DNA of 64,000 nt from an uncultured Pseudomonadota bacterium (GCA_949283535.1 CASDTC010000002.1:6130-70129); one strand, 5' to 3'; counted from the stretch's first letter, positions 29,751 through 62,360 are shown. The notes: generated by a model from the letters alone, not told the origin. Program-made: numbers and translations.

Positions 29751-31898
29751 TTATTTCCAATCACTTGGTATCTGGTCATAATCCGATAAACCGGTTGAAC
29801 CATAGTATGTAAACATTCTTGATGCATCGGGCCAGATTTCATACAGATATTGCCCATTTATCCGTGCCGATGGCCCGGTCAGTGATGTACAGTTGCGAAA
29901 TGTATGGGCAAACATACTGCTTGCCGCCGGTCCCGATATACCCGCAAATAAATTTTCCGGAATGCTTTGTAATTCTGAACAGCTGTAAAATGTACTGTCA
30001 AACATATAATTTGCCGGGGCACCTTGGATACCCGCGAATAAATCGGCTGGGATTTCTGTTATCGCGGTATTGGAAAATGTGTCTTCAAACATACTCGATG
30101 CCGGGGCGCCACGGATCCCCGCGAATAAATCCGCCGGAATACTGGTTATATCAGTGTAAGAAAATGTACCGGCAAACATGCTCCTCGCCGGGGCACCATG
30201 TATCCCCGCAAATAAATCCGCCGGGATACTGGTTATCGCGGTATAGACAAATGTCCACTCAAACATACTCTCTGCTGGGGCGCCACGGATTCCCGCGAAT
30301 AAATCCGCCGGAATACTGGTTATATCAGTGTAAGAAAATGTACCGGCAAACATACTCGATGCCGGGGCGCCTTGTATCCCTGCAAATAAATTCGCTGGAA
30401 TTTCTGTTAGTGCGGTGTAGGCAAATGTCCAATCAAACATACCCGATGCCGGGGCGCCACGGATCCCTGCAAATAAATCGGCTGGAATTTCTGTTAGTTC
30501 GGTGCTGTCAAATGTACCGGCAAACATATACTCCGCTGGGGCGCCCTGGATGCCTGCAAATAACCCATCGGGGATACTGGTTATTGCGGTATTGACAAAT
30601 GTCTCGGCAAACATCCTCTCTGCTGGGGTTATTGTACCACTGAACAATGGTCCATCAGCCGTGGTCAGGTTTTTGCAATTATAAAATGTCCGATCAAACA
30701 TATTCGGTGCGCCATCACCGTTTAATGTACCAAACAAATTCGCCGGAATGCTGGTTATTGTGCTACCGGAAAATGTCTCAGAAAACATCTCCTCTGCCGG
30801 GGTTATTGTGCCACTGAACAATGGTCCATCAACCGTGGTCAGGTTTGGGCATTCGGAGAATGTACTCTTAAACATCCTCGGTGCGCCATTGCCGTTTAAT
30901 GTGCCAAACAAATTCGCTGGGATACTGGTTATTGCGGTATCGGAAAATGTATTGTAAAACATCCTCTCTGCTGGTGTTATTGTACCGCTGAACAATGGTC
31001 CATCAGCCGTGGTCAGGTTGGCGCAATTATAAAATGTTCTGTAAAACATACTCGCCGCACCATCACCGTTTAATGTACCAAACAAATCCGCCGGAATACT
31101 GGTTATCGCGGTATAGGCAAATGTAGCGCCAAACATAACCGGTGCTGGTGTACCCGATATGCCATCAAATAAGTCCGCGGGAATTTCTGTTATTGGCGCC
31201 ATCATAAATGCAAATGCAAAATTCGGGTTGGATCCGTCATCCATTGTCGGAAACATACGACCCAGCCCACCAGATATCTTGGCAACATTGGTCGCCATAA
31301 AAGACCCACTAATCGCATCAGTCAATGCAAATGCTGGTACCCAATTGGCACCAGTGTCTATATCAAGTTTTGCATCGCTGTAATCCGTGGCGAGACCGGT
31401 CAGTTTTATTTCATATTCACCCGATGCGCTATATGTATGGGAATATGTTGTTGTGCCAATTGGTTTGTTTGCAATAACATCACGCTTTCCATCGCCCCAA
31501 TCAATTATAAAGTTCCCAGCCGCACCAATTATCATACTAAAACTGGATGTATTTGGTGTTGTCGTTATTGTAAATGTTGGGGCTTTGACCAATGTATCAA
31601 TTGCCGTATTTGTGGCAACTGTATCCGCCGCCGCCAGCGTGGCGTATTCACCATTGCCATAATCTGTGGTCTGCTCATTATTTAAAAATTCATTTGCGAT
31701 ATCAATAACAGTCAGCAGGTATTTCATATTTGCCGCAACGCGTGGATTTGTCAGCTCCGGATTATACGGCAAATCAATGCCCCATCGGGCGTTTAAATAC
31801 TGGTGAATGTATTCCACATTTACCATTTCTGCACCGCGTGCAATGTTTGGTAAAAACATAAATATTGCAAAGATAACTGATAATATTTTACGAAACAT
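29751..31898 (-). CDS. secreted protein with a PKD-like segment and about 15 tandem 29-residue LRR-like (BspA/DUF285-like) repeats
   Basis: 715 aa with a signal peptide (..LPNIARGAEM). IDWGDG...TYSHTYSASGEYEIKLTG resembles the PKD signature. Repeats of the form ITSIPADLFAGIRGAPAxSMFxxTFxYTA follow. The C-terminus GPSARINGQYLYEIW...GLSDYDQIPSDWK is shared with the paralog at 63234. Confidence 0.75.
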   Translation of the reverse strand: MFRKILSVIFAIFMFLPNIARGAEMVNVEYIHQYLNARWGIDLPYNPELTNPRVAANMKYLLTVIDIANEFLNNEQTTDYGNGEYATLAAADTVATNTAIDTLVKAPTFTITTTPNTSSFSMIIGAAGNFIIDWGDGKRDVIANKPIGTTTYSHTYSASGEYEIKLTGLATDYSDAKLDIDTGANWVPAFALTDAISGSFMATNVAKISGGLGRMFPTMDDGSNPNFAFAFMMAPITEIPADLFDGISGTPAPVMFGATFAYTAITSIPADLFGTLNGDGAASMFYRTFYNCANLTTADGPLFSGTITPAERMFYNTFSDTAITSIPANLFGTLNGNGAPRMFKSTFSECPNLTTVDGPLFSGTITPAEEMFSETFSGSTITSIPANLFGTLNGDGAPNMFDRTFYNCKNLTTADGPLFSGTITPAERMFAETFVNTAITSIPDGLFAGIQGAPAEYMFAGTFDSTELTEIPADLFAGIRGAPASGMFDWTFAYTALTEIPANLFAGIQGAPASSMFAGTFSYTDITSIPADLFAGIRGAPAESMFEWTFVYTAITSIPADLFAGIHGAPARSMFAGTFSYTDITSIPADLFAGIRGAPASSMFEDTFSNTAITEIPADLFAGIQGAPANYMFDSTFYSCSELQSIPENLFAGISGPAASSMFAHTFRNCTSLTGPSARINGQYLYEIWPDASRMFTYYGSTGLSDYDQIPSDWK
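29830..31195 (-). repeat. in-frame 87-bp tandem repeats (two alternating subtypes) inside the LRR-like gene
   Basis: The GGGGC(G/A)CC landmarks at 30103, 30190 and 30277 are spaced 87 nt apart. Further upstream, 174-bp double units recur (..NLTTADGPLFSGTITPAERMF..). Confidence 0.85.
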
Positions 31899-35938: not shown

Positions 35939-36697
35939 TTATATTGCGCGAACAACACGGCAAAACACAACACCATATACGGATTTTGCACCGGCATTTA
36001 CCAATACACGGCGCAATTCAGAAAATGTCGCCCCAGTCGTCATAACATCATCAACCAATAATATATTCCGACCACGAATTTTGTCTGGATTAATAACAGT
36101 GAAAACGCCATGAATATTTTCGGCGCGTTGCGCCGCATTTTTATGCCCCATGTCTGGACGGTAAAGACGATGAACACTGTCCACATCCATTGGGACCCCA
36201 AACACATGTGCAATTGGACGCGCCAGTAATGCCGCCTGGTTATAACCACGATGAAATAACCGACGCCATGCCAATGGAACTGGCATAACAATATCTGGGG
36301 AAATATCAGTATCACGCAATGCCCATATCATTGCACGCGACATGAATCGTGCATTCTTTATTCGACCGGCATGTTTAAACGGCAGAACTGCGCCACGCGC
36401 AGAATCATCGTATGTACACGCCGCACGAATTAAATCCAACACGCATCCACCAGATGCACAATTTGGACACAATGCCGCGTTATCAAAATCCAGATTGGCT
36501 GGAAAAGGATAGCCACAGCGCGAACATTTTGGATTACTAATCCAATTGAACGCATTCCAACAATCACCACATAATTCACCATGTGTCGACACTGGCATAC
36601 CACATAACGGGCATGATGACGGGAATAAAAATTCTATTGATTTTTGTGAAAATCTGGTTGCGATGTTAAAAATATTATGTGCGATTTGCATTACCAC
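35939..36697 (-). CDS. comF: ComF-family protein (phosphoribosyltransferase fold)
   Basis: N-terminal Cys clusters (CPLCG...CGDCW, CSRCG..., CPNC) and the PRT motif ILLVDDVMTTGATF are present. Confidence 0.8.
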   Translation of the reverse strand: MVMQIAHNIFNIATRFSQKSIEFLFPSSCPLCGMPVSTHGELCGDCWNAFNWISNPKCSRCGYPFPANLDFDNAALCPNCASGGCVLDLIRAACTYDDSARGAVLPFKHAGRIKNARFMSRAMIWALRDTDISPDIVMPVPLAWRRLFHRGYNQAALLARPIAHVFGVPMDVDSVHRLYRPDMGHKNAAQRAENIHGVFTVINPDKIRGRNILLVDDVMTTGATFSELRRVLVNAGAKSVYGVVFCRVVRAI

Positions 36698-38118
36698 GAC
36701 ATACTTCTGTATGTTTTCTTGCTGACGGTATCGCCAAATATATCACGTTGTTGTTTAGTTAATGTTTCATATTGATCCAATGAAATCATACGCAATACCA
36801 AACCTTCTTCATCACGCTGGGATAATACTGGTAATATGCGCTGTTCTGAAATACCATTATCGCGCAGGACCTGTTCAACAATCGCCAAACGGCGTGCCGC
36901 CAATTTTCTGTCATCATTGTTGGTTGTTGCACTGGCAGGAATTGAAACCTGGACCGCACGGGTTGGATTGCTTAATACAATTCCTGCATATTCTGTTAAC
37001 AATGTATAGTTATCACGCGACAATGCCGAATCGTCATTACGGAAATTTATTTTTATTTCCAGTGGACGAATACTTTCGCCAGTTTCAGATAAATCACGCG
37101 CCGATGTGAATCCCGCTGCATTTGCGGTCATATCGCTGGCAACATCAAATCGATCATCAATTTGGAATGTTGATAAATGTTTGTTTTCTGACAAGAATGT
37201 TTTTCTGAATGCCTTGCGCAATTCACTGGGCGACATACTGGTCATATCATTGCGAACAGATGCGATTCGTGGTGATTCAGATTTTTCCACCGCACGAACA
37301 ATAACATCATCGTCCATCGGCACAACCATACGCGATAAATTTATATCATGTGTACCAGTATCTGTATTGTTTTTTGCAACTGTACGCACGGGCTGTGCCG
37401 CAGATGCCGTGTTTGTCTGTGTCTGTATCGATGGGCGCGCGACAACATTACGCGCAACGACACTGCGTGTCTGCGTTGTTGCACGCGGCGCAACATCGTC
37501 CGCAACGCTGGCATCTGCGCGCCGTTGTAATTCATTCAAACGCGCGATTTGCGCATCCAGTTCTGATAATGGTTGTGCCGATGCAACCGTATTTACAGAT
37601 TCCGCCGCCCGCGTATTTTGTTCAGGCTGTGATTGTGCCACCGATGCAACGCGAACAGGTGTTTCATTTAAACTTTCTTCTGGTAATATGGCATCGGATT
37701 TAATCACTGAAAATTCAGATGGATTCGGCAAACGCAATGGCGTATCAACCCGTGCCCATAAATCTGAACTGGGGCGGCGTGGTGATAAAACATCCGCCGA
37801 TGCAACAATCTGTTCGCCGGTATCAACAGATGCACTGCGTGATTGTGTTTTTGATGACACAGAAACATCAGCACTGCGTGATGCAATCTGTGGCGTTGCG
37901 TCTGTATTTGATTTTACGGATGATGTTGTTTCTGATTTTGTTTTGGCAACGACCGGCGCCAATTGATTTATTTTTACAACCGGCTGAACAATTGGTTCAC
38001 CAAATGCTGCACGGGCAGAAATCCCGCCCGCAGACAGATTTACAACCGGCAACCGCGCGTCCGCCAATGCCGGAAATACAACAAAAACTGATAATACAGA
38101 TATTGCAATCCGACGCAT
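36691..38118 (-). CDS. secreted protein with a Ser/Thr/Arg/Val-rich low-complexity region and a possible OmpA-like C-terminal domain
   Basis: The ATG at 38118 has an AAGGAAAGGA SD. The signal peptide is ..VFPALADA. Repeated xVxSR/VAR motifs follow. The C-terminus ..NDDRKLAARRLAIVEQVLRDNGISEQRI.. resembles the OmpA_C pattern. Confidence 0.5.
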   Translation of the reverse strand: MRRIAISVLSVFVVFPALADARLPVVNLSAGGISARAAFGEPIVQPVVKINQLAPVVAKTKSETTSSVKSNTDATPQIASRSADVSVSSKTQSRSASVDTGEQIVASADVLSPRRPSSDLWARVDTPLRLPNPSEFSVIKSDAILPEESLNETPVRVASVAQSQPEQNTRAAESVNTVASAQPLSELDAQIARLNELQRRADASVADDVAPRATTQTRSVVARNVVARPSIQTQTNTASAAQPVRTVAKNNTDTGTHDINLSRMVVPMDDDVIVRAVEKSESPRIASVRNDMTSMSPSELRKAFRKTFLSENKHLSTFQIDDRFDVASDMTANAAGFTSARDLSETGESIRPLEIKINFRNDDSALSRDNYTLLTEYAGIVLSNPTRAVQVSIPASATTNNDDRKLAARRLAIVEQVLRDNGISEQRILPVLSQRDEEGLVLRMISLDQYETLTKQQRDIFGDTVSKKTYRSMSW

Positions 38119-38191
38119 AATTTCCTTTCCTTCCTGCAACTATCATAGAACAAATGACGAATCGCACGCAAGTGGAAAAATGCATCTGATA

Positions 38192-46168: not shown

Positions 46169-46684
46169 TTAATAACGACCGATACAACCCAAATATGAAT
46201 TGCCGGTCGATTCCAGTATGTTTATGAACTGGCTTTGACTTTTTCCGGAAAACAATGCCAATATCGTTCCTGCATCAGTTGCCAACATATCCGCAACAGT
46301 TGCAATCCCAGAATTCATTTTTTTGAAAAATCCACTGGCAGGATATATTTCTGCCGCCAATAACTGGTTTTTTCCACCACGCGCATGCGATGCATTTTTT
46401 TCAGATTCAATAACCATTAGTTGGCATTCGGGCGATATTATCAATTTATCGGTAACCAGCGCATTGCCACCCAATAATTCCCCCCACCAGCCGGTCGATT
46501 CGCAAAACACCGGATAATAAACACGCGCATTTGGATTCGCAGATAAAAATTCCGCAATGTCCAAATCGCCTGTTATAACATCGGGCATTACACCGGCGTC
46601 TGTGTTTATAACCTTGCGCGATAACTGGTAATCTGTATCCCCAGTCGTTCGGCGCGGCCAATAAAGAATCGGAAACTGTTTCAT
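46169..46684 (-). CDS. hypothetical protein (171 aa)
   Basis: A clean ORF beside the VirB6-like array. No motif recognised. Confidence 0.45.
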   Translation of the reverse strand: MKQFPILYWPRRTTGDTDYQLSRKVINTDAGVMPDVITGDLDIAEFLSANPNARVYYPVFCESTGWWGELLGGNALVTDKLIISPECQLMVIESEKNASHARGGKNQLLAAEIYPASGFFKKMNSGIATVADMLATDAGTILALFSGKSQSQFINILESTGNSYLGCIGRY

Positions 46685-46752: not shown

Positions 46753-48042
46753 TTATTTTTTTAGTGCGGCGTACCATTTTTTCAGGTTTCCCCACATAAT
46801 ATTTATGTTCTTTTTCGTTGTTTCATATGTCGCATCAGGAATTTTTACATTGGCAAACAGCATTTTTACCAATGCTGGTATCATCGTCATAAACATGGCG
46901 GTAAATATTCCCATTAACAGAATCGTTATTATGCTGTCGTTGCGCATCATTAATCCGTCCATCAAAATTGTTGGATCATTTTGTGCCAATGCCGTCGCCA
47001 GTCTGTCTGCCCCGTTCCAGCGACCAAACACCGCATTTAAAAACATTACAGAAAATGTTATAAACACGCCAATAATTGCAATCCCAGCGGTTGATTGGAC
47101 AACATCATTTATCATATCTTTGATATTGCGACCACCGTTTGGAAATATTGCCCAGCCATTGAACAACCATGACAACATCATAAATGGCAGCATTATTAAA
47201 TCCATGGACAGTTTTATAAATACTTCCAGAAAATATAATGGAATAGGCAATAATGCGAAAAAGAATAACACCAGGATTAACAAGCCCGCAAAAAATATCG
47301 GAACATTTGGAAATATTGGTATATCCCACATAATTTTATGCATGTATTCATCATTAAATGCCATGTTCAGCATCGTCCAACCAACTGTCATGCCTAATCC
47401 AGTCATTTGATGAACATTTGCAACCTCGCACGCCAGGTTATGACGCAGACGTGGCGAAAATGCACCATCGGATGCGGCAGATTCACTGACCGATACAGGA
47501 TCTGCAATGGCAGTTGCAACAACACATTTTGCAAATTCATCGTTGCCAGAAACCACACGATTTAACGACAACCCTATATTAAATATTGGTTCAATTACAA
47601 TATCTGTTAACATTCGGGGCAATGGCACCATTAATAATGCAGCGACAAATCCTAACTTTATAAACTTTGTGCCAAAATCGCTGGCAATTGACCATGGTTC
47701 ATCAATCTTGGCATTAATAAATCCAGAAAATAATTTCCATGCAAACCATATCGCCATCAATCCCGCAGAAAATGGCAATATAACCGTTCCAATTGCATTA
47801 TATACCCGTGGCAACAGTCCGGATATTGTCGCCATAACATCTGCAAACATCTGGCACGACCAACAACTGGAAAAGAAATTCATTGCCCCCGCCATATCAA
47901 CGGGAACAGTCGTTCTGTATATTGAAAAACCAGCAATAACACCAATACCAGCAATTGCGCCAACAACAAATGGTGCAACCGCCCCCGCCGAAAATGGCAG
48001 GAAAGACAAAAAAACAATCCAAAATTTTTTTAGTCTGTTCAT
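46753..48042 (-). CDS. VirB6/TrbL-like polytopic membrane protein, paralog 1 (divergent from the other four)
   Basis: 429 aa with multiple TM helices. The N-terminal module is SCWSCQMFADVMATISG...LMAIWFAWKLFSGFINAKIDEPW. This is an amphipathic segment, then a TM helix, then a basic/Gly turn, as at the VirB6 N-terminus. It ends in a Lys-rich tail. Confidence 0.5.
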   Translation of the reverse strand: MNRLKKFWIVFLSFLPFSAGAVAPFVVGAIAGIGVIAGFSIYRTTVPVDMAGAMNFFSSCWSCQMFADVMATISGLLPRVYNAIGTVILPFSAGLMAIWFAWKLFSGFINAKIDEPWSIASDFGTKFIKLGFVAALLMVPLPRMLTDIVIEPIFNIGLSLNRVVSGNDEFAKCVVATAIADPVSVSESAASDGAFSPRLRHNLACEVANVHQMTGLGMTVGWTMLNMAFNDEYMHKIMWDIPIFPNVPIFFAGLLILVLFFFALLPIPLYFLEVFIKLSMDLIMLPFMMLSWLFNGWAIFPNGGRNIKDMINDVVQSTAGIAIIGVFITFSVMFLNAVFGRWNGADRLATALAQNDPTILMDGLMMRNDSIITILLMGIFTAMFMTMIPALVKMLFANVKIPDATYETTKKNINIMWGNLKKWYAALKK

Positions 48043-48110
48043 TGCTTAAAGTATATCATATTTTGCCCTAAATGTGATATAATTGAAAAGATAAATTAAT
48101 ATTAGAGAGA

Positions 48111-49400
48111 ATGTTTTTATTCAAACGCACATTTTTTTATGCACTGCGGCACATTGTATTAATGGCAATGTGTTTTGTATTTATTCCGTCTGTTACATTT
48201 GGGGCGGACAAAAGTATTGTTGATGCATTAAACCTGGCGCCAATTATACCAACCGTTCTGGATGCATTAATGACCATTGCATCGGGCGGGTATGAATTCT
48301 TTGTCGGAAACGGCGATGGAATTATTTACATATTTGTCTGGGGATTTCTGGCGGTATCAATGGTGTTGTATTTATTAAAAATGTATTTCCCAAAACTGTG
48401 GGTGTCTTTTTTCGGCTTTTCGGGTGGCGGCGAAATGGCAGATGGCATCAGCGGGTTTACAATCGCAACAAATTTGTTAAAGCCCGGCATTCGTGCAATT
48501 ATTGCCGCCGTGGTATTATTACAATTAAAGCCCGTGTATTTAACAGAATGGCTGGTTAATCCATTTTTACAATTCGGGGCAATTTATACAGAAAGTTTGA
48601 CCAATACAATAAACGATGTCGCAGGCAGTGCGCCAAAAATTGAATGTCCAGAATCCGTTCTGGACCAGGGATGGATTTCAAAAGAAAGTTGTGAATTCTT
48701 GGTTCAACCCGTATCAGAAATATCACATGTAAATAACCAGGTTATCAAACGCGGATTTGATTTTATAAATACTGGATTGCGCGGATTAATAACATTGGTG
48801 CCACATGGTGGCGAAGATTTCTTGAACCTGGTCACAGGGGTATTATTAGTATTCACATTTGTTTCCAGCAATCTGTTTATGGCGTTGTTAATTATCCAGG
48901 CAATATTTAATTTTGGAATGGCACTGATTTTATATCCGTTCCAAGTATTGGCATATGTCGTAAAGCCCAGTGACAAATGGTTTGATATATGGCCAGCATT
49001 TGGCGGTATTACCAAGGCGTTGCAAAAACTGGTTATAACCATGATTGCATGCGCGTTTATTTTAATCGTTAATATTGCTGTTATAAAATCTTTATTCCAA
49101 TGGTCGTCATCTGTATTCGTTGTCGCCGCGGGTGGTGCCGCGTCATCAAATGTCCCCCAGGTTGCACACAGCGCAATGGGATTTGGGCAACATTCTATAT
49201 TATGGCTGTCAGCAATACTGACATTCTATTTAATGTTGCGCATATTTAAATTAACACGCGAACAACTGGACAGATATGTCGGCAGCGGTATGGATAAACT
49301 GTATAACCAGGTTATCAGTGATTCTAAAATTATGACAAAGAATGTTAAAAATATCGGCACAACTGTTGGTAAAGCATTGGGGTGGATTAAAAAGAAATGA
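48111..49400 (+). CDS. VirB6/TrbL-like polytopic membrane protein, paralog 2
   Basis: 429 aa with a signal/TM, then ..PTVLDALMTIASGGYEFF...VSMVLYLLKMYFPKLW and 6 or more TM helices. Its stop overlaps the next start (ATGA). Confidence 0.5.
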   Translation: MFLFKRTFFYALRHIVLMAMCFVFIPSVTFGADKSIVDALNLAPIIPTVLDALMTIASGGYEFFVGNGDGIIYIFVWGFLAVSMVLYLLKMYFPKLWVSFFGFSGGGEMADGISGFTIATNLLKPGIRAIIAAVVLLQLKPVYLTEWLVNPFLQFGAIYTESLTNTINDVAGSAPKIECPESVLDQGWISKESCEFLVQPVSEISHVNNQVIKRGFDFINTGLRGLITLVPHGGEDFLNLVTGVLLVFTFVSSNLFMALLIIQAIFNFGMALILYPFQVLAYVVKPSDKWFDIWPAFGGITKALQKLVITMIACAFILIVNIAVIKSLFQWSSSVFVVAAGGAASSNVPQVAHSAMGFGQHSILWLSAILTFYLMLRIFKLTREQLDRYVGSGMDKLYNQVISDSKIMTKNVKNIGTTVGKALGWIKKK

Positions 49401-50581
49401 ACGGATTTATGAATTCTTTGATTGATTCAAGTGTTCAGTGCTGGGGCTGTCCGATATTTGACCGGCTGTTCCAGATTGTGTCAAATGCCGCCGCCGCAGT
49501 GTATGATCAATTCGTTATTTTCTGTGCAATTATTTTCTGTGTATTATTTGCGTTTGTTGTACTGAATGCCGTATGGCAAAATATCAAGGGTGGCGTATCT
49601 GACCCGTGGTATCAAAAATCATTAAAGCCGTTAATTATAAATTCACTGGTATCATTGGCATTTTTAAGTCTGGGGGTTTATTTGCCGCGCTTTGTTTCAT
49701 CGGTTACATTTGAACCGGTTACAAATATCGCACTGGTTTATACACAAAGCATGTTGCAAACAAATCCAGAAACCGTAAATGAAAAAGTTCACTATCAGCC
49801 AATGGAAATATCTGATGATGGGTTCTTTCGCCCACAGTTGCGCGACAGTATTATATTATTAATGAAAACAACCATTACACAATTCCAATCATATATGAAA
49901 CTGGGGATTGCTGTTATGGACAAGGCTTTCTCATTAGACGCGCTGTTGGGCATCGGTGCACTGATTAAACACATTATTCTGTTCTTTATCGGATTATATT
50001 TGTTTTACGGATTTTTTAAATTATTTATACGGTTCTGTTTTTATTTTGCAGATATTATTGTGGCGATGACATTCTTTGCATTTTTCTTTCCATTGTCGTT
50101 AATACTGGTTGCATTCAAGGGCGCAAATGCGCCATCATGGATTTCAAATCTGGGAAAAAATGTTGGAACCGGACAATTTAAAAAATTAATTAATGCAATT
50201 ATTGCGTTGGCAGCGGCGGTTTTAACATATACTGTTATAATGGTTATTATTGCAAAATTCTTTTCGGCGCCGGGACAAAGTGCTGCTGATATCATGCAAC
50301 TGATTACCAGTGGTGAAGTATTTGCGGGCGACCTGTCGGGGGATAATTTAGCCGTCATGACATTGGGGGGATGCATAATATTGGTTTATGTGTTAAACTT
50401 TATATATGACCAAATTCCCAATGTTACAAAAATGGTTCTGGATTCGTTCGGTGTATCAACAGAAAATCAATTGTCCGAACAATTGGCAAATGATGCAATG
50501 AAATTAACAACAAATATAATTGAAACAGTTAAAAAAACAGGACAAACAATTATATCGGGCGGAAAGAAAGACGATAAATGA
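49397..50581 (+). CDS. VirB6/TrbL-like polytopic membrane protein, paralog 3
   Basis: 394 aa. The N-terminal module is QCWGCPIFDRLFQIVSNAAAAVYDQF...VVLNAVWQNIKGGVSDPW, followed by multiple TM helices. ATGA overlaps occur on both sides. Confidence 0.5.
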   Translation: MNGFMNSLIDSSVQCWGCPIFDRLFQIVSNAAAAVYDQFVIFCAIIFCVLFAFVVLNAVWQNIKGGVSDPWYQKSLKPLIINSLVSLAFLSLGVYLPRFVSSVTFEPVTNIALVYTQSMLQTNPETVNEKVHYQPMEISDDGFFRPQLRDSIILLMKTTITQFQSYMKLGIAVMDKAFSLDALLGIGALIKHIILFFIGLYLFYGFFKLFIRFCFYFADIIVAMTFFAFFFPLSLILVAFKGANAPSWISNLGKNVGTGQFKKLINAIIALAAAVLTYTVIMVIIAKFFSAPGQSAADIMQLITSGEVFAGDLSGDNLAVMTLGGCIILVYVLNFIYDQIPNVTKMVLDSFGVSTENQLSEQLANDAMKLTTNIIETVKKTGQTIISGGKKDDK

Positions 50582-52014
50582 AAGCAACACTGATATCCAT
50601 TGCCATACGACTGTTAATGGGCGCAATCGCGTTGGGTATTGGTATATGGTATCTGTCATCATCAATCAGTGGCGCGGCAATAACATATACCAGTATGGAT
50701 GGATTTCTGAATGCAATTGGTGTTCAAAATGGTGATATTGCAACGGCAAATGGATGTTTCCTGTGTGGGTATATTTCGGAATTATTTGCTGTAATTGGAC
50801 GCGCCGCTGAATTTTTCTGGGACGCAATGGTTGATAATATATGGATATTGATGGCAATCGGTTTTGGATTGTTCTTGTTCATATATACGGCAAAATATAT
50901 CTTTGACGCGGCAAAAAAAACACAGACACTGGATACCAGTGAAAAGAAACTGGAATTAAAGGGCTGGTTCGATAAAGTATGGCGCCAGGGCGCACGCGTC
51001 ATGATTGTTGGCGCGTTAATGGGTGCGTTGGGCATGGGTGGAAATGCCGCGCTGAAAACTGTTGCAAATATAACCATTACCCCGGTGTTATTTGTTGGTG
51101 CAGAACTGTCCATGGCGGCGACCGGCGTTACAGACGCTGCAACATGTGGCGCATTGACCACAACAAATGAAACAGACGATGTTTTAAACCCAATTTTACA
51201 ACCGTTCATGTGCGTCATGGGCAATATTAACAGTGTTATGCTGGCGGGGGCGGCGGGCGGTTTTTCACTGATGAATTATGCATGGATGGGATTGGGCGGC
51301 GGCGTATTTACATGGATTGCCGGGCTGGCGTTAGTATTAATGTTCTTGGTCATCGGGTTTGATTTAGTGTTTCAGATTTTGTCTGTTGTGTTTAAATTAG
51401 TATTTCTGATTATATTCTTGCCGTTAATTTTGGCGGCGGCGGCGTTTGAACAGACATGGAAACTGGCGGATGGGGTTGTGAAAAATGCAATTAATATGCT
51501 GGTGCGAACGGCGGTGCAAGTTGTCGGAATAACTTTAAAGGTTTTGATTACATATGCCATCGTTGCATATGCGGCAGATGCATACTTTCCGGGACCACGC
51601 GATGGATACAGTGCGATATTGCCACCAATGATGGGGCAAACGGTTGAAAATCCAGATGCACAAACACTGTCTGTTATGAATGTATTTTCAACATGCGAAC
51701 GCGTTGCAACCACAAATGGGGAAATGGACGGGGATAAATTCAAAGACTGTTTCACCGCGCAAAAGGCGGCGGTTGAACGCGAATATCCGCATGCGTTTGA
51801 TTTTATGGATGACGGGTGGGATTTCTTGGTATTAATGTTTGGGATATTCTTGTTATATTTCTATGCGATTAAGCCAAAGGTGGATGGTATAATAACCGCC
51901 GGTGGCAAAGAACAATTTGACTTTGGCACATGGGCAAAGGGTCTGGGTAAAAAGATATGGTCGGCACCACAACAAATATTTGATGCGGTATCAAAGGCGG
52001 TTGGGAAAAAGTAA
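50578..52014 (+). CDS. VirB6/TrbL-like polytopic membrane protein, paralog 4
   Basis: 478 aa. The N-terminal module is GCFLCGYISELFAVIGRAAEFFWDAM...FLFIYTAKYIFDAAKK, followed by multiple TM helices. Confidence 0.5.
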   Translation: MKATLISIAIRLLMGAIALGIGIWYLSSSISGAAITYTSMDGFLNAIGVQNGDIATANGCFLCGYISELFAVIGRAAEFFWDAMVDNIWILMAIGFGLFLFIYTAKYIFDAAKKTQTLDTSEKKLELKGWFDKVWRQGARVMIVGALMGALGMGGNAALKTVANITITPVLFVGAELSMAATGVTDAATCGALTTTNETDDVLNPILQPFMCVMGNINSVMLAGAAGGFSLMNYAWMGLGGGVFTWIAGLALVLMFLVIGFDLVFQILSVVFKLVFLIIFLPLILAAAAFEQTWKLADGVVKNAINMLVRTAVQVVGITLKVLITYAIVAYAADAYFPGPRDGYSAILPPMMGQTVENPDAQTLSVMNVFSTCERVATTNGEMDGDKFKDCFTAQKAAVEREYPHAFDFMDDGWDFLVLMFGIFLLYFYAIKPKVDGIITAGGKEQFDFGTWAKGLGKKIWSAPQQIFDAVSKAVGKK

Positions 52015-52017
52015 TTT

Positions 52018-53307
52018 ATGAAAAAAATAAAATCTATCTTTGCCAAAATTATTATTGCCATTATGGCAATGGTGTTGATTTTACCAAATACGACATATGC
52101 GGCAACATCAAATTTACCAATGGCAGATGTTGGTGATTATGGCAATTGGGCAACGCCAGACAATATTGATTTATTTAAAACAGACATAACCCACGATATG
52201 GAACAGATGGAACCAAAACCAATTGTTTCAGACTATGTCCCGTTCGAGGCAAAAATTGGTCTGGCAATGATGAATGGTTTTTCAATTGTTGCCGAAGTGT
52301 TGGATTCTTCACTGGTGCGGTTTGCAATTATATTCATGATTATTGCGTATATTTTCTGGGCAATGTTTGAAGCATACAATATGATGAAAAACGGCGCCAG
52401 TGCAATGGATTTTGGTGTTAATCTGGTAAAAAAAGGCGGCGTTATATTAATCTGGATTATCATATTAAATTTCGGACCCGCCCAGGTTTTTATGTGGATT
52501 ATGGGTCCAATTGTCGGTGTTGGCACATATATGGCAGATTTAATCTTGAATGCAATTGCGGGCGCAATTGGCACAGAATTGCCCGATACATGCGCTGCAA
52601 TTCGCGACTATGCCGCGGCAAATACATCGGGTAATATGTTAATTGATGCAAATGCCGCCGCGGATATATTGTGCGTTCCAACGCGACTGTCTGGATTTTT
52701 TACAACAGCGGTGGTGGCGGGATGGAAATGGATGATTGCAGGTATTGGCACCAGCGCATTTACTGTACTGGTTGGCGCGACATTTATTGTTATATTTTTA
52801 TATACAGGGTTTAAGTTCTTGTTAATGGGGCTGGGCGTTATAATGGATTTGTTCTTGGGTGTTTTAATGTTGCCATTTACCGCGATTGCCGAAACGATTA
52901 ACAAAACATCATTAAAGGGTATCGTTGGCGATATATATAATGGATTTTTAGGATTATTTAAGCCGGAATCATTACAAAATCAAATCCAACGTTTCATAAA
53001 TGCAGCAATATATTTTGTATCATTATCGATTGTTATCGCCGTGTGTGCAGCATTGTTATCAGGCACAGTGGATGCAAATCTGGCGTCTGAAATTCCAACG
53101 CTGGAAAATGATGGGTTTATTATAACATTGTTGACGGGTTGTCTGGTTGCATATCTGGCAAATCGCGCCGACAGTATTGCAAAAGATTTGGGCGGCAGTG
53201 TTAATGACAGTTTTGGCAAGCAATTTGGCAATGATGTAAAAAAACTGGGGCAAAATGCATATGGATGGGGCAAGAAAGTCGTTAATATAATCAGAAAGAA
53301 AAAATAA
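52018..53307 (+). CDS. VirB6/TrbL-like polytopic membrane protein, paralog 5
   Basis: 429 aa with a signal peptide (..NTTYAAT). The module is ..FEAKIGLAMMNGFSIVAEVLDSS...IFWAMFEAYNMMKNG, followed by multiple TM helices and a Lys-rich tail. Confidence 0.5.
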   Translation: MKKIKSIFAKIIIAIMAMVLILPNTTYAATSNLPMADVGDYGNWATPDNIDLFKTDITHDMEQMEPKPIVSDYVPFEAKIGLAMMNGFSIVAEVLDSSLVRFAIIFMIIAYIFWAMFEAYNMMKNGASAMDFGVNLVKKGGVILIWIIILNFGPAQVFMWIMGPIVGVGTYMADLILNAIAGAIGTELPDTCAAIRDYAAANTSGNMLIDANAAADILCVPTRLSGFFTTAVVAGWKWMIAGIGTSAFTVLVGATFIVIFLYTGFKFLLMGLGVIMDLFLGVLMLPFTAIAETINKTSLKGIVGDIYNGFLGLFKPESLQNQIQRFINAAIYFVSLSIVIAVCAALLSGTVDANLASEIPTLENDGFIITLLTGCLVAYLANRADSIAKDLGGSVNDSFGKQFGNDVKKLGQNAYGWGKKVVNIIRKKK

Positions 53308-56268: not shown

Positions 56269-58740
56269 TTAATCAGACTGTAAAACACATATTCCATTTT
56301 GCAATACATACCCAGAATCACATACGCATGTGCCGTAATCGTTTCTGGATGCGTTCGTGCCACATGCCGCCAAACATTGACCATTCCATACTTCGTATCC
56401 AATATTGCAATAACATTTATCATTTACCATGCAATATGTATAATAAGGAATGCTGCCTCCACCCGGTACAATCCGATTCTCAGCTTTGCTTATACATTTA
56501 TTTGCAGTGGCTTTATAGGTAATATTTATAACATTATTAGTTTCTGTCCTGTAACTGGAATTATCTGGACATAGTAATGACTGATAGAACATTTCGGAAA
56601 TGCTTTCCAGACATTTGTCATCTTTGTGCCCATCACTTGTTACTGGGCAACTGGTTTGGTCATCTTTGAACACCGCATATGCGCATGTTAATGCCACATT
56701 GCGGCATGCACCACGCATAACATTATATACACTGCCGACACTGGCACTGGATGACCATGTGTTAACCTGGGTTACCTGTTGATTATAACAATTTGCGATA
56801 TCCAGAACGCAATTTGACGCATAATCTGATATTATCTGGCGCTGTGCCGCTTGGATATTAACCATTGCGCGTTGTACATAATTTACAACAACATCATTAT
56901 ATGGTAAATAATTACCGCGATCATCATATGTATATGCCTGGCATTTGTCCAGAACCGCACGACACAATCCTTCGTCTTGGGTTTCTTGTTTTGTGCCAAT
57001 TTTCTTTAACAGATATGCGGCAATACATGCGCCATTATTACCAACCCCATCATCATCATTACTGGGTACAGTGGCAGAACATGCTTTATCGTTAATTGCC
57101 ATAGAATATGAATTCTGTAAAAATCCTTTGTCTATATCCGCATTATTATAGCTGGTCATAAAATCGATAATTTTGGTTATATCCTGCCCCAATACAACAG
57201 AACCATTTTCATCAATATATGTCTTGGTCGGATCCAGACATTTTGTATAATCCTCGCCACAAACCATATCATCACGCATGCATTCGTCCAGTGCCGCCAT
57301 ACAGCCCTTGGCATCATATTGATTTTTATTTTCCAGAACCGCCAAACGCGCCTTTTGCAACATTAAATTCGCACTGCGAACATTGGAAACCAATGTTTCG
57401 TTCATTTTTTTCAATCCCTGTTCATATGAAATGCAATCACGGTCAATTGCCAGGTCATAATTTGCGGTTATTTGATCAATGTTTGCACCGGCTTCTTCGC
57501 ATTGATCCAGAATTGTTTTACAACGATTTTTTGCCGCATTGTACAGTTGTGTACCACGCATATTTGATAAATTACTGGTGAATCCCGTGGTCAAGAAATC
57601 CAAACTGAATAAATCCGCCGAATTCGATAAAAAATCCAAATCCATATCCAAACCAAACAATCCAGAATTTGATGAATAACTGGACGATGTACTGACCGGG
57701 TCGCGAATTAATTCTTCGATTTCTTCCAGCATGTTGCGTGTTTCTGTCGTATCCTTGGCACCAGACAGTGCTTCTTCTGCCTCGGTCGCGGACATAATGG
57801 CATCGATTTCTTCTTCGGTTAATCCGACATAGCGGATACGCTGTGCCACTTCGTTTAATTGATTATTGGCATCGGTAACGGCTTCTTCAACATCTGTATA
57901 ATCGCTTAAATTTGCCGAACAAGAACAACGTTTTTGATTTGAATCAATAACCGAACAAAATTGATCCATACAATCATTATACTGTTGCTGGCACGATGAA
58001 TTTAAATCAGAAACCAAATCCATGCGTTCCTTGGCGGCGGCAATTGTTTCAGATGTAACCGTTGTATTCCCAGATGTTGTTGCACGCGCGGAAACAGAAC
58101 GCGCTTCGTTCGCGATGTTTGACCCAGTTTGAATATCAGTACCGGCAATGGTGGCACGACCGCCAACCTCTGCGGTTGATGGACGCAGCGATAATCCCGC
58201 GCGGCGAACCGTTGGATTGTTATTAATACTGGCAGATTCAACCCGGGCGTTGCGACCAACCGTATTTACCGTCGCATTCAAATTATCACGCGCAGAATTT
58301 ACATGTGTTGCACCCGCTGCGCGCGACACGCTGCCCCCGCTGCGCGTGGTGGATGTACCACGCGATGTTGCACCGGTATCATTGCCTAAATCTAAAACAC
58401 GCGAACCAACACGAACAATATCTGAATCAGATGCAGTTGTATTTGTTGTTGTGGCAGCACGACTGACCACACTGCGCGAATCTGTGGCATTACGTGCGGT
58501 ATTATCAGACGCATCATCATTATTTATCGTTTCAGATTGAACCGTTTTTTGAACCGATTGTGTTATTGTTGTGCGTGATGCATTCGGACGTGTTGTTGAT
58601 GCACCACGCGATGTCGTATTTGATACAGTCGCATCCGTTGATGTACTGGACGGGATTGCGCGCGATATAGACGAACCGTCTGCGAACGCAAACGGCGCAG
58701 TAAATGCGATTAAGAAAAAGCACAATGGCAATCTTCTCAT
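56269..58740 (-). CDS. large secreted protein: Ser/Thr/Arg-rich N-terminal region plus cysteine-rich C-terminal region (about 32 Cys), paralog A
   Basis: 823 aa. The signal peptide is ..FTAPFAFADG. About 230 low-complexity residues follow (TSRGASTTR, VVSRAATTT, SVSRAAGAT). Then come YNDCMDQFCSVIDSNQKRCSC, coiled-coil-like stretches, many CxnC pairs and an EGF-like end (CYCNIGYEVWNGQCLAACG..GTCVCDSGYVLQNGICV). Confidence 0.7.
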   Translation of the reverse strand: MRRLPLCFFLIAFTAPFAFADGSSISRAIPSSTSTDATVSNTTSRGASTTRPNASRTTITQSVQKTVQSETINNDDASDNTARNATDSRSVVSRAATTTNTTASDSDIVRVGSRVLDLGNDTGATSRGTSTTRSGGSVSRAAGATHVNSARDNLNATVNTVGRNARVESASINNNPTVRRAGLSLRPSTAEVGGRATIAGTDIQTGSNIANEARSVSARATTSGNTTVTSETIAAAKERMDLVSDLNSSCQQQYNDCMDQFCSVIDSNQKRCSCSANLSDYTDVEEAVTDANNQLNEVAQRIRYVGLTEEEIDAIMSATEAEEALSGAKDTTETRNMLEEIEELIRDPVSTSSSYSSNSGLFGLDMDLDFLSNSADLFSLDFLTTGFTSNLSNMRGTQLYNAAKNRCKTILDQCEEAGANIDQITANYDLAIDRDCISYEQGLKKMNETLVSNVRSANLMLQKARLAVLENKNQYDAKGCMAALDECMRDDMVCGEDYTKCLDPTKTYIDENGSVVLGQDITKIIDFMTSYNNADIDKGFLQNSYSMAINDKACSATVPSNDDDGVGNNGACIAAYLLKKIGTKQETQDEGLCRAVLDKCQAYTYDDRGNYLPYNDVVVNYVQRAMVNIQAAQRQIISDYASNCVLDIANCYNQQVTQVNTWSSSASVGSVYNVMRGACRNVALTCAYAVFKDDQTSCPVTSDGHKDDKCLESISEMFYQSLLCPDNSSYRTETNNVINITYKATANKCISKAENRIVPGGGSIPYYTYCMVNDKCYCNIGYEVWNGQCLAACGTNASRNDYGTCVCDSGYVLQNGICVLQSD

Positions 58741-60143: not shown

Positions 60144-62360
60144 TTAATTACCCTCGTTTTCGCGGTAATCGTTTACGTCCCATTCACGAATTTCTTCTAC
60201 AAAGTTGCTTAACAAGCACTGTTCACGCAAATTCGCCGAATTACATTTTGTTGCGTCTTCGCCAATACACAATGGTGTTTGTGTATCTGTTACGGTCGCA
60301 CCATTTACACCATTCAATATTTCATTCAATGTTACAATATTGCGGCATGTATTTTGTTCATAGTCTTGGCTATTATTACATGTTTCGCTGTCTTGCGTGT
60401 CAATAATTGCGCGGAATTGTGATGTTGACGGATTGCAAATCATTGTTTCATAACAATGTGGAACATTTGCAATTTGTGCGCAATATGTTCTGATACGCGA
60501 TGTAGACCAGTTTTCTGAATCTGCCTGGGTTTCATAACAATCCAATATTTCACTTAAACATTCGTTAAAGTTTGTACCTGCCGCGGTTGCTTCTGACAAA
60601 ATTGTTTCTTGTTCTTCTTGATAGAATTCCAGACGCTTTTGCTGTAATGCCTGTTGCGCGGCGACCTTTTGATAGCCGATATTTTGTGCGGTTGTGCTTA
60701 ATTGTTCACCATATGCATCACAGTCCGCATTCGCATCCAGCGCATATTTCTGCATAATGCTGCGACGTGCGTCGGCAACTGGTCCACGCAGGTCGGCATA
60801 TGGATCGCCCGATGCCGATGTATAGCCAAAGCATGTTGCCGAATTAGACGCCGTATATCCCGTATTTGGTTCAATGAAATTTAATTCATATGTACCAGTA
60901 TTCGATACGGTTATATAACTGTTATAATTATACGGGCATTGTGAACGACCATTACCGCACTTAGTTCCACCAGACGGCGGTGTGCCACACGCTTCATAAA
61001 TTCCGTTAAAGCAGGAATCCAATACGCGGTTGCAAACATTATTATGTGCATATTCAAACAGTTCGTATCCCCATGTTTCCGCCAGGGAATCTTTCAGATT
61101 TTCACTGTCTGCGAATGCACCACTGACCCCTGCCAAATTGCCAACAACATTTGTCAATTCATCGAATGCGGATGTTAACGCATCTTCATCATCCGTCAGA
61201 ATGGTTAATGTTTGTTCTTTTGCGTCCGCCCATGATTGCAGGGACGCCAAGATATCGCTGCTGGTGCCGTCAATATTGTCTATATTAAATCCGAAATTAT
61301 TTCCAGTTTCTGTACAATATGATGGCTGATTACATGGACTTTGCCCATTGCCCTGACCATCGAACAAACCATGATTATAGCACCAATCTTGCGCCTGGGT
61401 TGAATTTGTACCGTATTGATCGGTCACTTCTTTCCATGATACACAATTCATAACTTTTTCTGCATCTGTTAATTGGAATGCTTCACTGATATCTTTACCC
61501 TTGGTGGCGATTAACAATGCCAATTCACCAGATACCTTTATCAATTCTTCGTTTGCCTGTTCCAGGGCGGCTTCGGCCTCTGCAAATGCCTTGACACGAC
61601 CGGCGCATGCGCAACGACGTTGTGCCGCGTTACGCGCGGTGCAGATTTCGTCCATACACGCATAGTATGATTCCATGCAATTGTTGTATGCATCCGCAGA
61701 AATTAATCCGGTTGTCGAATCGATAATGTTTGAATAGTTTCCCGTATACAATCTGTTTTGCAGATATGTATATGTTGCGGAATTTGTTGCAGCCTTGCTG
61801 CCACGGATTGCACTGCCCTGTAATGAAACGCGGGCGGTTGTACCGGCGCGGGATACGACATTACGATTTGTTGTTGCGCGCGATGCATTTGCAACCGTGC
61901 CACGCGATACGACATTACGTCCACTGGTTGTGGCGGTGCCACGCGATACTGTATTTGCCGTTGTGCGTGATGCGGATACACTGGGGCGCGCAGATGTCGT
62001 TGTCGCACGCGATGCGGTTGTTGTCGCCGTACGCGTTGTTGTGGTTGGTGTCGCCGTTGTACGCGCCGTTGTGCCACGCGATGTAACCGCACGCGATGCA
62101 GTTGCAGTGGTCGTGGTACCACGCGATACGGTATTTGTTGCCGTACGACGCGATGTCGCATTCGTACTGCGCGGTGACGCGGTGCCAGCACGCGTTGCCT
62201 GGGGTCCAGCAACAACAGTTGATGTTGCAATTGGTGCAATTGGATCTGCAAACACGGCACGAATTGACACCAATGTCGAACAAACCAGAAACGCCCCCGC
62301 CAACAAGAACACCGTTCCCATTGCATTTTTGCAATAATCTGCGAAATTACGGCTTTTCAT
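60144..62360 (-). CDS. large secreted protein: Thr/Ser/Arg-rich N-terminal region plus cysteine-rich C-terminal region (about 26 Cys), paralog B
   Basis: 738 aa. The signal/TM is ..LVCSTLVSIRAVFA. About 170 low-complexity residues follow (TATNTVSRGTTTTATASRAVTSRGTTARTT...). Then comes YNNCMESYYACMDEICTARNAAQRRCAC plus a coiled coil, matching the motif in the 823-aa paralog. Confidence 0.7.
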   Translation of the reverse strand: MKSRNFADYCKNAMGTVFLLAGAFLVCSTLVSIRAVFADPIAPIATSTVVAGPQATRAGTASPRSTNATSRRTATNTVSRGTTTTATASRAVTSRGTTARTTATPTTTTRTATTTASRATTTSARPSVSASRTTANTVSRGTATTSGRNVVSRGTVANASRATTNRNVVSRAGTTARVSLQGSAIRGSKAATNSATYTYLQNRLYTGNYSNIIDSTTGLISADAYNNCMESYYACMDEICTARNAAQRRCACAGRVKAFAEAEAALEQANEELIKVSGELALLIATKGKDISEAFQLTDAEKVMNCVSWKEVTDQYGTNSTQAQDWCYNHGLFDGQGNGQSPCNQPSYCTETGNNFGFNIDNIDGTSSDILASLQSWADAKEQTLTILTDDEDALTSAFDELTNVVGNLAGVSGAFADSENLKDSLAETWGYELFEYAHNNVCNRVLDSCFNGIYEACGTPPSGGTKCGNGRSQCPYNYNSYITVSNTGTYELNFIEPNTGYTASNSATCFGYTSASGDPYADLRGPVADARRSIMQKYALDANADCDAYGEQLSTTAQNIGYQKVAAQQALQQKRLEFYQEEQETILSEATAAGTNFNECLSEILDCYETQADSENWSTSRIRTYCAQIANVPHCYETMICNPSTSQFRAIIDTQDSETCNNSQDYEQNTCRNIVTLNEILNGVNGATVTDTQTPLCIGEDATKCNSANLREQCLLSNFVEEIREWDVNDYRENEGN

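Follow-up and report, generated by a model that had tools for sequence, protein, structure and literature searches.

Five paralogous membrane proteins of Candidatus Enterousia probably form a highly divergent VirB6 subfamily and belong to a scattered type IV secretion system

In the structure of the type IV secretion system (T4SS) of R388, the stalk in the middle of the inner-membrane complex has a pentamer of VirB6 (TrwI) as its base, and this pentamer has been proposed to be a platform for pilin recruitment (PMC12981334). In some bacteria, virB6 is present in several copies: Rickettsia encodes five tandem RvhB6 proteins (a to e) in islet A of its rvh system, which is organized as virB3-virB4a-virB6a-e (PMC2653234), and Anaplasmataceae and Wolbachia have four, as described in a paper on Wolbachia. 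The subject of this report is an array of five genes, here termed A to E, within a 64,000-nucleotide stretch of DNA recorded under an uncultured Pseudomonadota bacterium (GCA_949283535.1, CASDTC010000002.1:6130-70129) and referred to below as the window. The host is Candidatus Enterousia, a gut bacterium of the alphaproteobacterial order Rs-D84 with a genome below 1 Mb. The five proteins are probably T4SS components and constitute an unannotated, highly divergent VirB6 subfamily. An initial annotation of the window had left open whether the array belongs to a scattered, VirB6-expanded T4SS or represents a new membrane-protein family; the former is favoured by fold, by transitive links between hidden Markov models (HMMs) and by the presence of virB8, virB9 and virB10, so that both similarity to VirB6 and T4SS core genes elsewhere in the genome have been found.

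Structural evidence for a VirB6 identity comes from AlphaFold2 models of two of the paralogs. For the model of C (predicted local distance difference test score, pLDDT, of 64), the five best Foldseek matches in the PDB are all TrwI/VirB6 chains of R388, with probabilities of 0.95-1.00 and target-normalised template modelling (TM) scores of 0.34-0.53; the next match has a probability of 0.11. For the model of A (pLDDT 59), TrwI chains account for 9 of the top 11 PDB matches (E = 1.4e-3, probability 1.00, target-normalised TM up to 0.58). Among 350,000 PDB chains, VirB6 was the sole high-probability match for both models. As modelled, A and C have a VirB6-like fold, and the structural comparison proposed in the initial annotation thus retrieves the protein that it had named.

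The connection at the level of sequence is transitive. An exhaustive profile search for the family yielded 1096 clusters (50% identity), of which 388 had E ≤ 1e-10, and PF04610, the TrbL/VirB6 family of Pfam, is matched by 7 of 66 diverse members scanned individually (E ≤ 0.01; best 2.9e-6). The PF04610 scan suggested at the outset gave nothing for the five window proteins themselves, none of which reaches the gathering score of 25.9 bits, and a match for distant relatives. These Pfam matches recur on one family out of 24,736. In the member P0259, the match covers residues 514-624 and lies inside the segment homologous to the rest of the family (334-680), with a score of 21.2 bits (E = 2.8e-4) that is below the gathering cutoff. 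Weak precomputed matches to PF04610 are also present on three paralogs in two more distant arrays, L152 and L153 (see below). An NCBIfam scan of the 66 members returned one weak match to a "type IV secretion system protein" (NF010426, E = 0.0027), along with GTPase matches that come from fused or misjoined proteins. In at least two family representatives, a small-GTPase domain (MMR_HSR1/Era/Der-like, E = 1e-9 to 3e-11) lies C-terminal to the VirB6-like core, as at residues 475-635 of P0220 (636 aa); this may reflect either a genuine fusion or two genes merged in gene calling.

A further link runs through the RvhB6 proteins, in the sequences that Gillespie et al. 2009 published as a supplement (PMC2653234). 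The family HMM matches RvhB6b of R. typhi in two collinear segments with E = 1.1e-5 (domain 3.6e-7); of 63 controls made by shuffling or reversing sequences, the best reaches 1.5e-3 against the same HMM. In profile comparisons by hhalign, the family aligns with a profile of 121 TrwI sequences at P = 1.5e-3 (local) or 2e-5 (global) and with RvhB6b at P = 4e-3 (local). Because the positive control, in which TrwI was compared with RvhB6a/b as two accepted VirB6 clades, gives local P values in the same range (5e-4 to 2e-3), the family is about as distant from each accepted clade as these clades are from each other. The three hhalign alignments close on one residue, with P232 of C corresponding to P181 of TrwI and P448 of RvhB6b, and this invariant proline is followed in the family, TrwI and RvhB6b by the common motif P-x7-[F/W/V]-x(2-9)-W. 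The tryptophan lies 11-16 residues past the proline in A to D and 18 residues past it in TrwI and RvhB6a/b; E lacks this residue, which the other four paralogs have. A "conserved Trp" was marked in the VirB6/TrbL domain by Gillespie et al. 2009 (PMC2653234). Searched against 150 family representatives, an HMM of the TrwI family gave weak matches at consistent positions. A phmmer search of the same 150 representatives with TrwI gave no significant match, a phmmer search of PDB sequences with C gave nothing relevant, and hhalign against the single TrwI sequence gave only a very weak alignment. By fold, motif and transitive homology, membership of the five proteins in the VirB6/TrbL superfamily is supported; by the Pfam threshold, they lie outside PF04610.

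VirB6 proteins are characterised by at least five transmembrane segments, a large periplasmic loop and a cytoplasmic C-terminus. By hydropathy, each of the five paralogs has at least six hydrophobic segments, consistent with the six or more transmembrane helices counted in the initial annotation, and each ends in a Lys-rich tail with 6-9 Lys/Arg among its last 30 residues. The five aromatic/basic "turn" motifs described earlier each stand at the expected place, and a signal-like N-terminal segment is present in A, B and E and absent from C. A long loop bears a cysteine pair in A (C173/C205), B (C179/C194), D (C190/C212) and E (C192/C219); C has no loop pair, and D carries a second pair (C373/C391) within a D-specific insertion. 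In addition, a CxxC motif occurs before the first long helix in A (C60/C63), C (C15/C18) and D (C60/C63) and is lacking in B and E. The three motifs reported at first (SCWSCQMF, QCWGCPIF and GCFLCGYI) are all present and are 100% conserved among the orthologs of A, C and D. The accompanying remark that CxxC is not associated with canonical VirB6 holds for TrwI, which contains no cysteine and is the one protein with which this comparison was made.

Although mutual identity among the five is only about 20%, they are, on the evidence of profile searches, true and anciently diverged paralogs. Pairwise BLASTP links among A, C, D and E range from 3e-12 to 1e-3 (A with C, 3e-12; A with D, 9e-6; D with E, 3e-5), and B reaches just 0.046. 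When each group of orthologs was left out in turn and searched with an HMM trained on the other four, the matches extended over nearly the full length at E = 1e-30 to 6e-48, for example 1.3e-44 for A, 1.8e-30 for B (residues 74-422), 2.4e-34 for D and 9.8e-41 for E. An end-to-end alignment of the five contains four invariant residues, P107, G170, G199 and P232 (C numbering).

The gene layout described in the initial annotation was reproduced in full: the five open reading frames were found at the coordinates given there, with lengths of 394-478 aa (Table 1), and a base-by-base check verified ATGA overlaps at the B/C and C/D junctions, a gap of 3 nt between D and E (TAA-TTT-ATG) and a divergent gene A at a distance of 68 bp. 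The GC content of the array (0.38-0.42) is like that of the rest of the window. Scans for promoters and terminators stayed at background level. The A/B spacer contains weak sigma-70-like matches on both strands, and since their count does not exceed the expectation from shuffled sequence, a promoter function of the spacer is presumed from its position between divergent genes.

Table 1. Coordinates of the array, of other genes in the window and of genes in related loci (positions without a locus name refer to the window).
Feature	Position	Strand	Description
virB10, 3' part	1-1395	+	TrbI domain (PF03743, E = 8.8e-17) and C-terminal extension
virB9-virB10 region of L137	7302-11383		VirB9 and full-length VirB10, both with extra domains
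715-aa protein	29751-31898	-	signal-peptide-like N-terminus; no Pfam match
482-aa protein	36691-38139	-	signal-peptide-like N-terminus; no Pfam match
orf171	46169-46684	-	171-aa soluble protein of no detectable family; adjoins A
Paralog A	46753-48042	-	VirB6-superfamily polytopic membrane protein, 429 aa; divergent from B-E
A/B intergenic spacer	48043-48110	.	68 bp; presumed promoters of both transcription units
Paralog B	48111-49400	+	429 aa; most divergent member; orthologs in 80/80 loci
Paralog C	49397-50581	+	394 aa; ATGA overlap with B stop
Paralog D	50578-52014	+	478 aa; ATGA overlap with C stop
Paralog E	52018-53307	+	429 aa; fastest-evolving of the five
823-aa secreted protein	56269-58740	-	33 Cys; Ser/Thr-rich N-terminal half; no Pfam match
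738-aa secreted protein	60144-62360	-	28 Cys; no Pfam match
Fic/RhuM-domain gene of L154	3488-4483	-	adjoins E ortholog
Two-helix protein of L151	4967-5227		directly before array
Two-helix protein of L152	6061-6327		directly before array
Two-helix protein of L153	5976-6239		directly before array

Conservation was assessed in GTDB species representatives, of which 80 loci carry the array. Their records bear the names Candidatus Enterousia, "uncultured Alphaproteobacteria" or "uncultured Rickettsiales", and complete chromosomes of 0.72 and 0.96 Mb are among them. The order suhB-rpmE-orf171-A (all on the minus strand), B-C-D-E (plus), uvrD (minus) and dnaQ (plus) is unchanged in the 80 loci wherever the contig reaches, and all five reading frames are intact in nearly all of them. 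Median ortholog identity is 73% for A, 69% for B, 73% for C, 73% for D and 61% for E, with 74% for UvrD. The paralog-specific cysteine signatures are 99-100% conserved (100% for the Cys columns of A in 78 orthologs, 99-100% for those of B). Given these signatures and the strict 1:1 conservation, each paralog appears to be individually constrained, unlike redundant copies. Homologs of C number more than 1000 and are nearly all metagenomic; none is named and none has a precomputed Pfam domain. Two records titled "Bacteroides fragilis" (CAVGNU010000001.1) and "uncultured Muribaculaceae bacterium" (OZ246409.1) contain a full Enterousia-type array and are most likely mislabelled or contaminated metagenome-assembled genomes.

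The host lineage was described in a 2025 study, which placed Candidatus Enterousia in the uncultured order Rs-D84, reported genomes below 1 Mb without the tricarboxylic acid cycle, respiration or flagella, and mentions no secretion system (PMC12306168). No published link between Rs-D84 and a T4SS was found in the literature.

Immediately beside A, orf171 is present in every locus that reaches past A on that side (73/80), with 69-94% identity within Enterousia and 77% in L154, values above those of the VirB6 paralogs. It was considered as a member of the islet and rejected: because of its identity in L154 and its absence near the arrays of L151-L153, it is treated as a neighbour.

Arrays of exactly five tandem members also occur in three lineages outside the 80-locus set. 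The array of L154 (GC 38%) has the same layout as that of the window and consists of 1:1 orthologs with 44-60% identity. Those of L151 (GC 30%) and of L152 and L153 (GC 29-30%) lie on one strand between housekeeping genes and encode larger proteins, of 770, 781, 857, 474 and 650 aa in L151 and of 551-557, 675-697, 663-671, 501-510 and 833-837 aa in L152/L153, which places them near the RvhB6 proteins of Rickettsia (674-1154 aa) in size. In both L152 and L153, the protein at position 4 has D as its best partner, which suggests a collinear ancestral array. Because exactly five members are found in Enterousia, L154, L151 and L152/L153, the copy number and the tandem arrangement are ancient within the group. 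Directly before the arrays of L151-L153 is a small conserved gene, whose product (86 aa in L151, 87-88 aa in L152/L153) has a Lys-rich tail besides two hydrophobic helices. It occupies the position of virB3 in Rickettsia and has no counterpart in Enterousia; no significant resemblance of the 86-88-aa proteins to VirB3 or VirB2 was detected. In L154, the E ortholog is adjoined by a Fic/RhuM-domain gene. Fic-domain proteins are effectors of other T4SSs, and by analogy the L154 protein is a candidate substrate.

Other T4SS genes lie at a distance from the array. A VirB10-like fragment noted earlier 45 kb away is the only T4SS match in the window, and it is a gene cut by the 5' edge of the window, since its reading frame is open from base 1 and the full virB10 of a 78%-identical relative, L137, encodes 828 aa. 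In L137, virB10 is preceded by genes for VirB9/CagX (517 aa, E = 7e-22) and VirB8 (E = 7.6e-7), and this virB8-virB9-virB10 islet sits between nusG-rplK-rplA-rplJ and yidC. In every locus examined, small ORFs and then yidC follow virB10 on its 3' side, not virB11 and virD4. The islet of five virB6 genes, located 45 kb from the first, is placed between rpmE/suhB and uvrD/dnaQ. A tblastn search with all R388 T4SS proteins as queries, which covered the window plus 149 related loci of about 2.4 Mb, detected only VirB10. Both VirB9 and VirB10, which are outer-membrane core proteins, carry extra domains: VirB10 continues for about 250 aa past the TrbI domain and has a Cys-rich tail (CPDGGAPDANGCCAGE...CCPESGGDC), and the L137 VirB9 is unusually long, with a weak SPOR-like C-terminus (E = 0.0048).

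The other large reading frames of the window encode housekeeping proteins or secreted proteins without Walker motifs, and the DNA past its 3' end contains housekeeping genes only. A VirB4 hidden among the large Pfam-less reading frames was ruled out by the lack of a Walker A motif. Four large proteins have no Pfam match (Table 1). Those of 823 aa, which is 54-82% identical across Enterousia species, and 738 aa may be surface proteins or adhesins. Uncharacterised exported proteins are notably dense for a genome of less than 1 Mb.

In the mechanism proposed here, A to E would be the VirB6-type inner-membrane platform of a chromosomal T4SS that is scattered in small islets among housekeeping genes. 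Coupled translation of B to E from a single operon is predicted, with A expressed from a divergent promoter. The long loop with its conserved cysteine pair is placed in the periplasm on account of those cysteines, and the C-terminus is placed in the cytoplasm on account of the Lys-rich tails; both placements are predictions. VirB6 of Agrobacterium tumefaciens reportedly has its N-terminus outside and its C-terminus inside, which agrees with the orientation predicted for A to E. Substrate is thought to pass through or beside VirB6, and pilin may be recruited there. The five paralogs may co-assemble into a single heteromeric platform, possibly in a 1:1:1:1:1 ratio. A putative heteromeric assembly is considered more likely than interchangeable homo-oligomers because each paralog seems non-redundant and is strictly conserved in genomes below 1 Mb and because VirB6 is pentameric. 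The more specific proposal of one heteropentameric VirB6 stalk base, in which A, B, C, D and E are each obligatory and none can stand in for another, is tentative and considered less likely than not. For the direction of transport, which may be export of effectors or DNA or import of DNA in the ComB manner, the cues conflict: virB11 and virD4 are absent beside virB10, whereas a Fic-domain gene neighbours the array of L154.

Several observations weigh against these interpretations. Neither Pfam, PF04610 included, nor NCBIfam has a model that matches any of the five window proteins at E ≤ 1; the sequence-level links to VirB6 are each weak (sub-threshold Pfam matches and hhalign probabilities of 8-53%), and the family profile has no match among PDB sequences. 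The AlphaFold2 models of A and C are of only moderate confidence (pLDDT 59-64) and are not fully independent, since most of their alignment rows are in common. Among the remaining components, VirB8 and VirB9 are very divergent (best match to a PDB sequence at E = 0.04), and VirB4, VirB11, VirD4, VirB2, VirB3 and VirB5 were detected neither in the window nor in the approximately 2.4 Mb of related loci. The lack of neighbouring T4SS partners stated in the initial annotation is confirmed over 10 kb in the 80 species-level loci, and neither VirB3 nor VirB4 was found within 10 kb of the array in the 80 Enterousia-type loci or in L151-L154, in contrast to all described Rickettsiales arrays. Finally, the heteropentamer is purely inferential, and Anaplasmataceae and Wolbachia have four virB6 genes.

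Some of these points feed explanations in which the array is not part of a working T4SS. The five proteins could be a new polytopic membrane-protein family, such as transporters, whose resemblance to VirB6 reflects a convergent helical bundle and compositional bias. Spurious weak matches arise easily with all-alpha membrane proteins, and controls with shuffled sequence reach 1.5e-3 against the family HMM; moreover, there is no direct Pfam or NCBIfam match, and the genomes encode many uncharacterised membrane proteins but no standard transporters for sugars, amino acids or peptides (PMC12306168). However, convergence would have to account for the selection of VirB6 alone by Foldseek with two paralogs, for repeated matches to one family in all of Pfam, for three alignments that agree on the same Pro/Trp motif and for VirB8, VirB9 and VirB10 encoded in the same genome, so that this explanation is considered quite improbable. 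Even more improbable is the idea that an integrated conjugative element or a plasmid T4SS left the array behind as a decaying remnant. Genes for T4SSs often arrive on mobile elements, and the usual virB neighbours are missing here as they are in eroded elements, but the GC content matches that of the surrounding window, the housekeeping flanks are in conserved synteny across 80 species, the five reading frames are intact in nearly all loci with identities comparable to UvrD, and the large window ORFs scanned against Pfam include neither an integrase nor a relaxase domain.

Other explanations accept a T4SS and differ in what it does or how it is built. The five VirB6-family proteins might be alternatives, each forming a separate homo-oligomer that is swapped according to condition, substrate or target cell. 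In the Wolbachia paper, the rvh duplicates are called "presumably functionally redundant", and what they do is termed "a mystery"; four copies in Anaplasmataceae and Wolbachia imply that a pentamer does not dictate the copy number in every case, and A, on its own divergent transcription unit, could be separately regulated. On the other hand, the translational coupling of B to E favours equimolar co-expression, and in about 80 species all five persist as 1:1 orthologs, each with an invariant cysteine pattern of its own and with low identity to the other paralogs. Redundancy is also unlikely where genomes below 1 Mb shed dispensable genes (PMC12306168), and a count of exactly five recurs in Enterousia, L154, L151, L152/L153 and Rickettsia. 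A set of interchangeable alternatives is accordingly regarded as possible but doubtful. The islets might instead encode a ComB-like competence system, in which the VirB6-like proteins, VirB8, VirB9 and VirB10 import DNA together with ComEC. The run of small ORFs and yidC after virB10 in every locus examined, never virB11 or virD4, and a ComEC gene in the window (PF03772, E = 3.8e-52) are as expected for such a system, and Gillespie et al. noted that VirB7 and VirB9 of rvh resemble ComB7 and ComB9 and that a role in DNA uptake is worth considering (PMC2653234). In a system of scattered components, though, the absence of virB11 and virD4 beside virB10 is uninformative about the rest of the genome, and the Fic/RhuM-domain gene next to the L154 array hints at protein translocation; uptake of DNA is thus judged rather unlikely. 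The preferred interpretation remains that A to E belong to the inner-membrane platform of a scattered T4SS.

If so, the findings suggest that a common gut lineage has an undescribed machine for cell-to-cell injection or DNA transfer. The uncultured alphaproteobacteria of Candidatus Enterousia and Rs-D84, with genomes below 1 Mb, are common in the guts of humans and animals, and a conserved T4SS with five specialised VirB6 subunits in such bacteria argues for physical contact with host, protist or bacterial cells. The architecture of scattered islets with multiple VirB6 proteins would also be extended beyond the Rickettsiales. Together with the pentameric VirB6 platform of R388, five conserved paralogs provide a testable hypothesis for the VirB6 expansions that the Wolbachia paper found so puzzling. 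Should the heteropentamer prove true, the expansion would either predate the split of Rs-D84 and Rickettsiales or have arisen convergently through position-by-position subfunctionalisation of a pentameric platform, and the compact Enterousia proteins, which are without the huge RvhB6 extensions, would be a minimal model for rvh-type expansions; the machine would then also mark this widespread gut lineage as a cell-associated symbiont or parasite rather than a free-living fermenter. On a practical level, the named family members at NCBI are all called "hypothetical protein [Alphaproteobacteria bacterium]" and the window proteins escape Pfam and NCBIfam, so a dedicated family profile would re-annotate more than 1000 protein clusters.

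Among characterised proteins, TrwI/VirB6 of R388 (PDB 7O3V, 8RT9 and 8RTD) is the only confident structural match, obtained with the models of two paralogs. TrwI and the Enterousia family have in common a collinear profile alignment, the helix with the invariant proline (P181) and a C-terminal "QLPSIA"-like helix. Sequence identity is 10-14%, and TrwI (342 aa) has neither cysteines nor CxxC and ends in a Gly/Ala/Arg-rich rather than a Lys-rich tail. Unlike the Enterousia array, trwI is a single copy inside a contiguous virB operon. The PF04610 proteins, including TrbL of IncP plasmids and VirB6 of A. tumefaciens, likewise span the inner membrane several times and have a large central loop; some members of the Enterousia family match PF04610 below threshold in the same core region, whereas the five window proteins do not match it. 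ComB6, of the ComB competence T4SS of Helicobacter pylori, is also VirB6-like, and that system lacks VirB11 and VirD4 and imports DNA. In Enterousia, too, neither virB11 nor virD4 comes after virB10, but ComB6, likened here by description, is single-copy and Enterousia has five copies.

The closest described counterpart in organization is the rvh T4SS of the Rickettsiales. Both are chromosomal T4SSs in islets scattered among housekeeping genes of an alphaproteobacterium with a reduced genome, and in both Rickettsia and Enterousia five tandem VirB6 paralogs are conserved with one another in a short core only (PMC2653234). Both families also have the Pro...Trp core motif and, within a long loop, a Cys pair. 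The arrangement of the genes differs in that the rvh array follows virB3-virB4a and its virB8-10 genes are followed by virB11-virD4, neither of which is the case in Enterousia, and in that A is inverted relative to B-E. Duplicated virB4, virB8 and virB9 and the lack of virB5 are further marks of the rvh type. The Enterousia proteins are smaller (394-478 aa compared with 674-1154 aa for RvhB6), and three of them have the fully conserved CxxC before the first long helix. Moreover, the host belongs to Rs-D84, a lineage of the gut, rather than to the known intracellular Rickettsiales, and the family is about equally far from RvhB6b (hhalign P = 4e-3) and from plasmid TrwI (1.5e-3). Taken together, these comparisons support a description of the Enterousia system as a Rickettsiales-like scattered T4SS with a five-fold expansion of VirB6.

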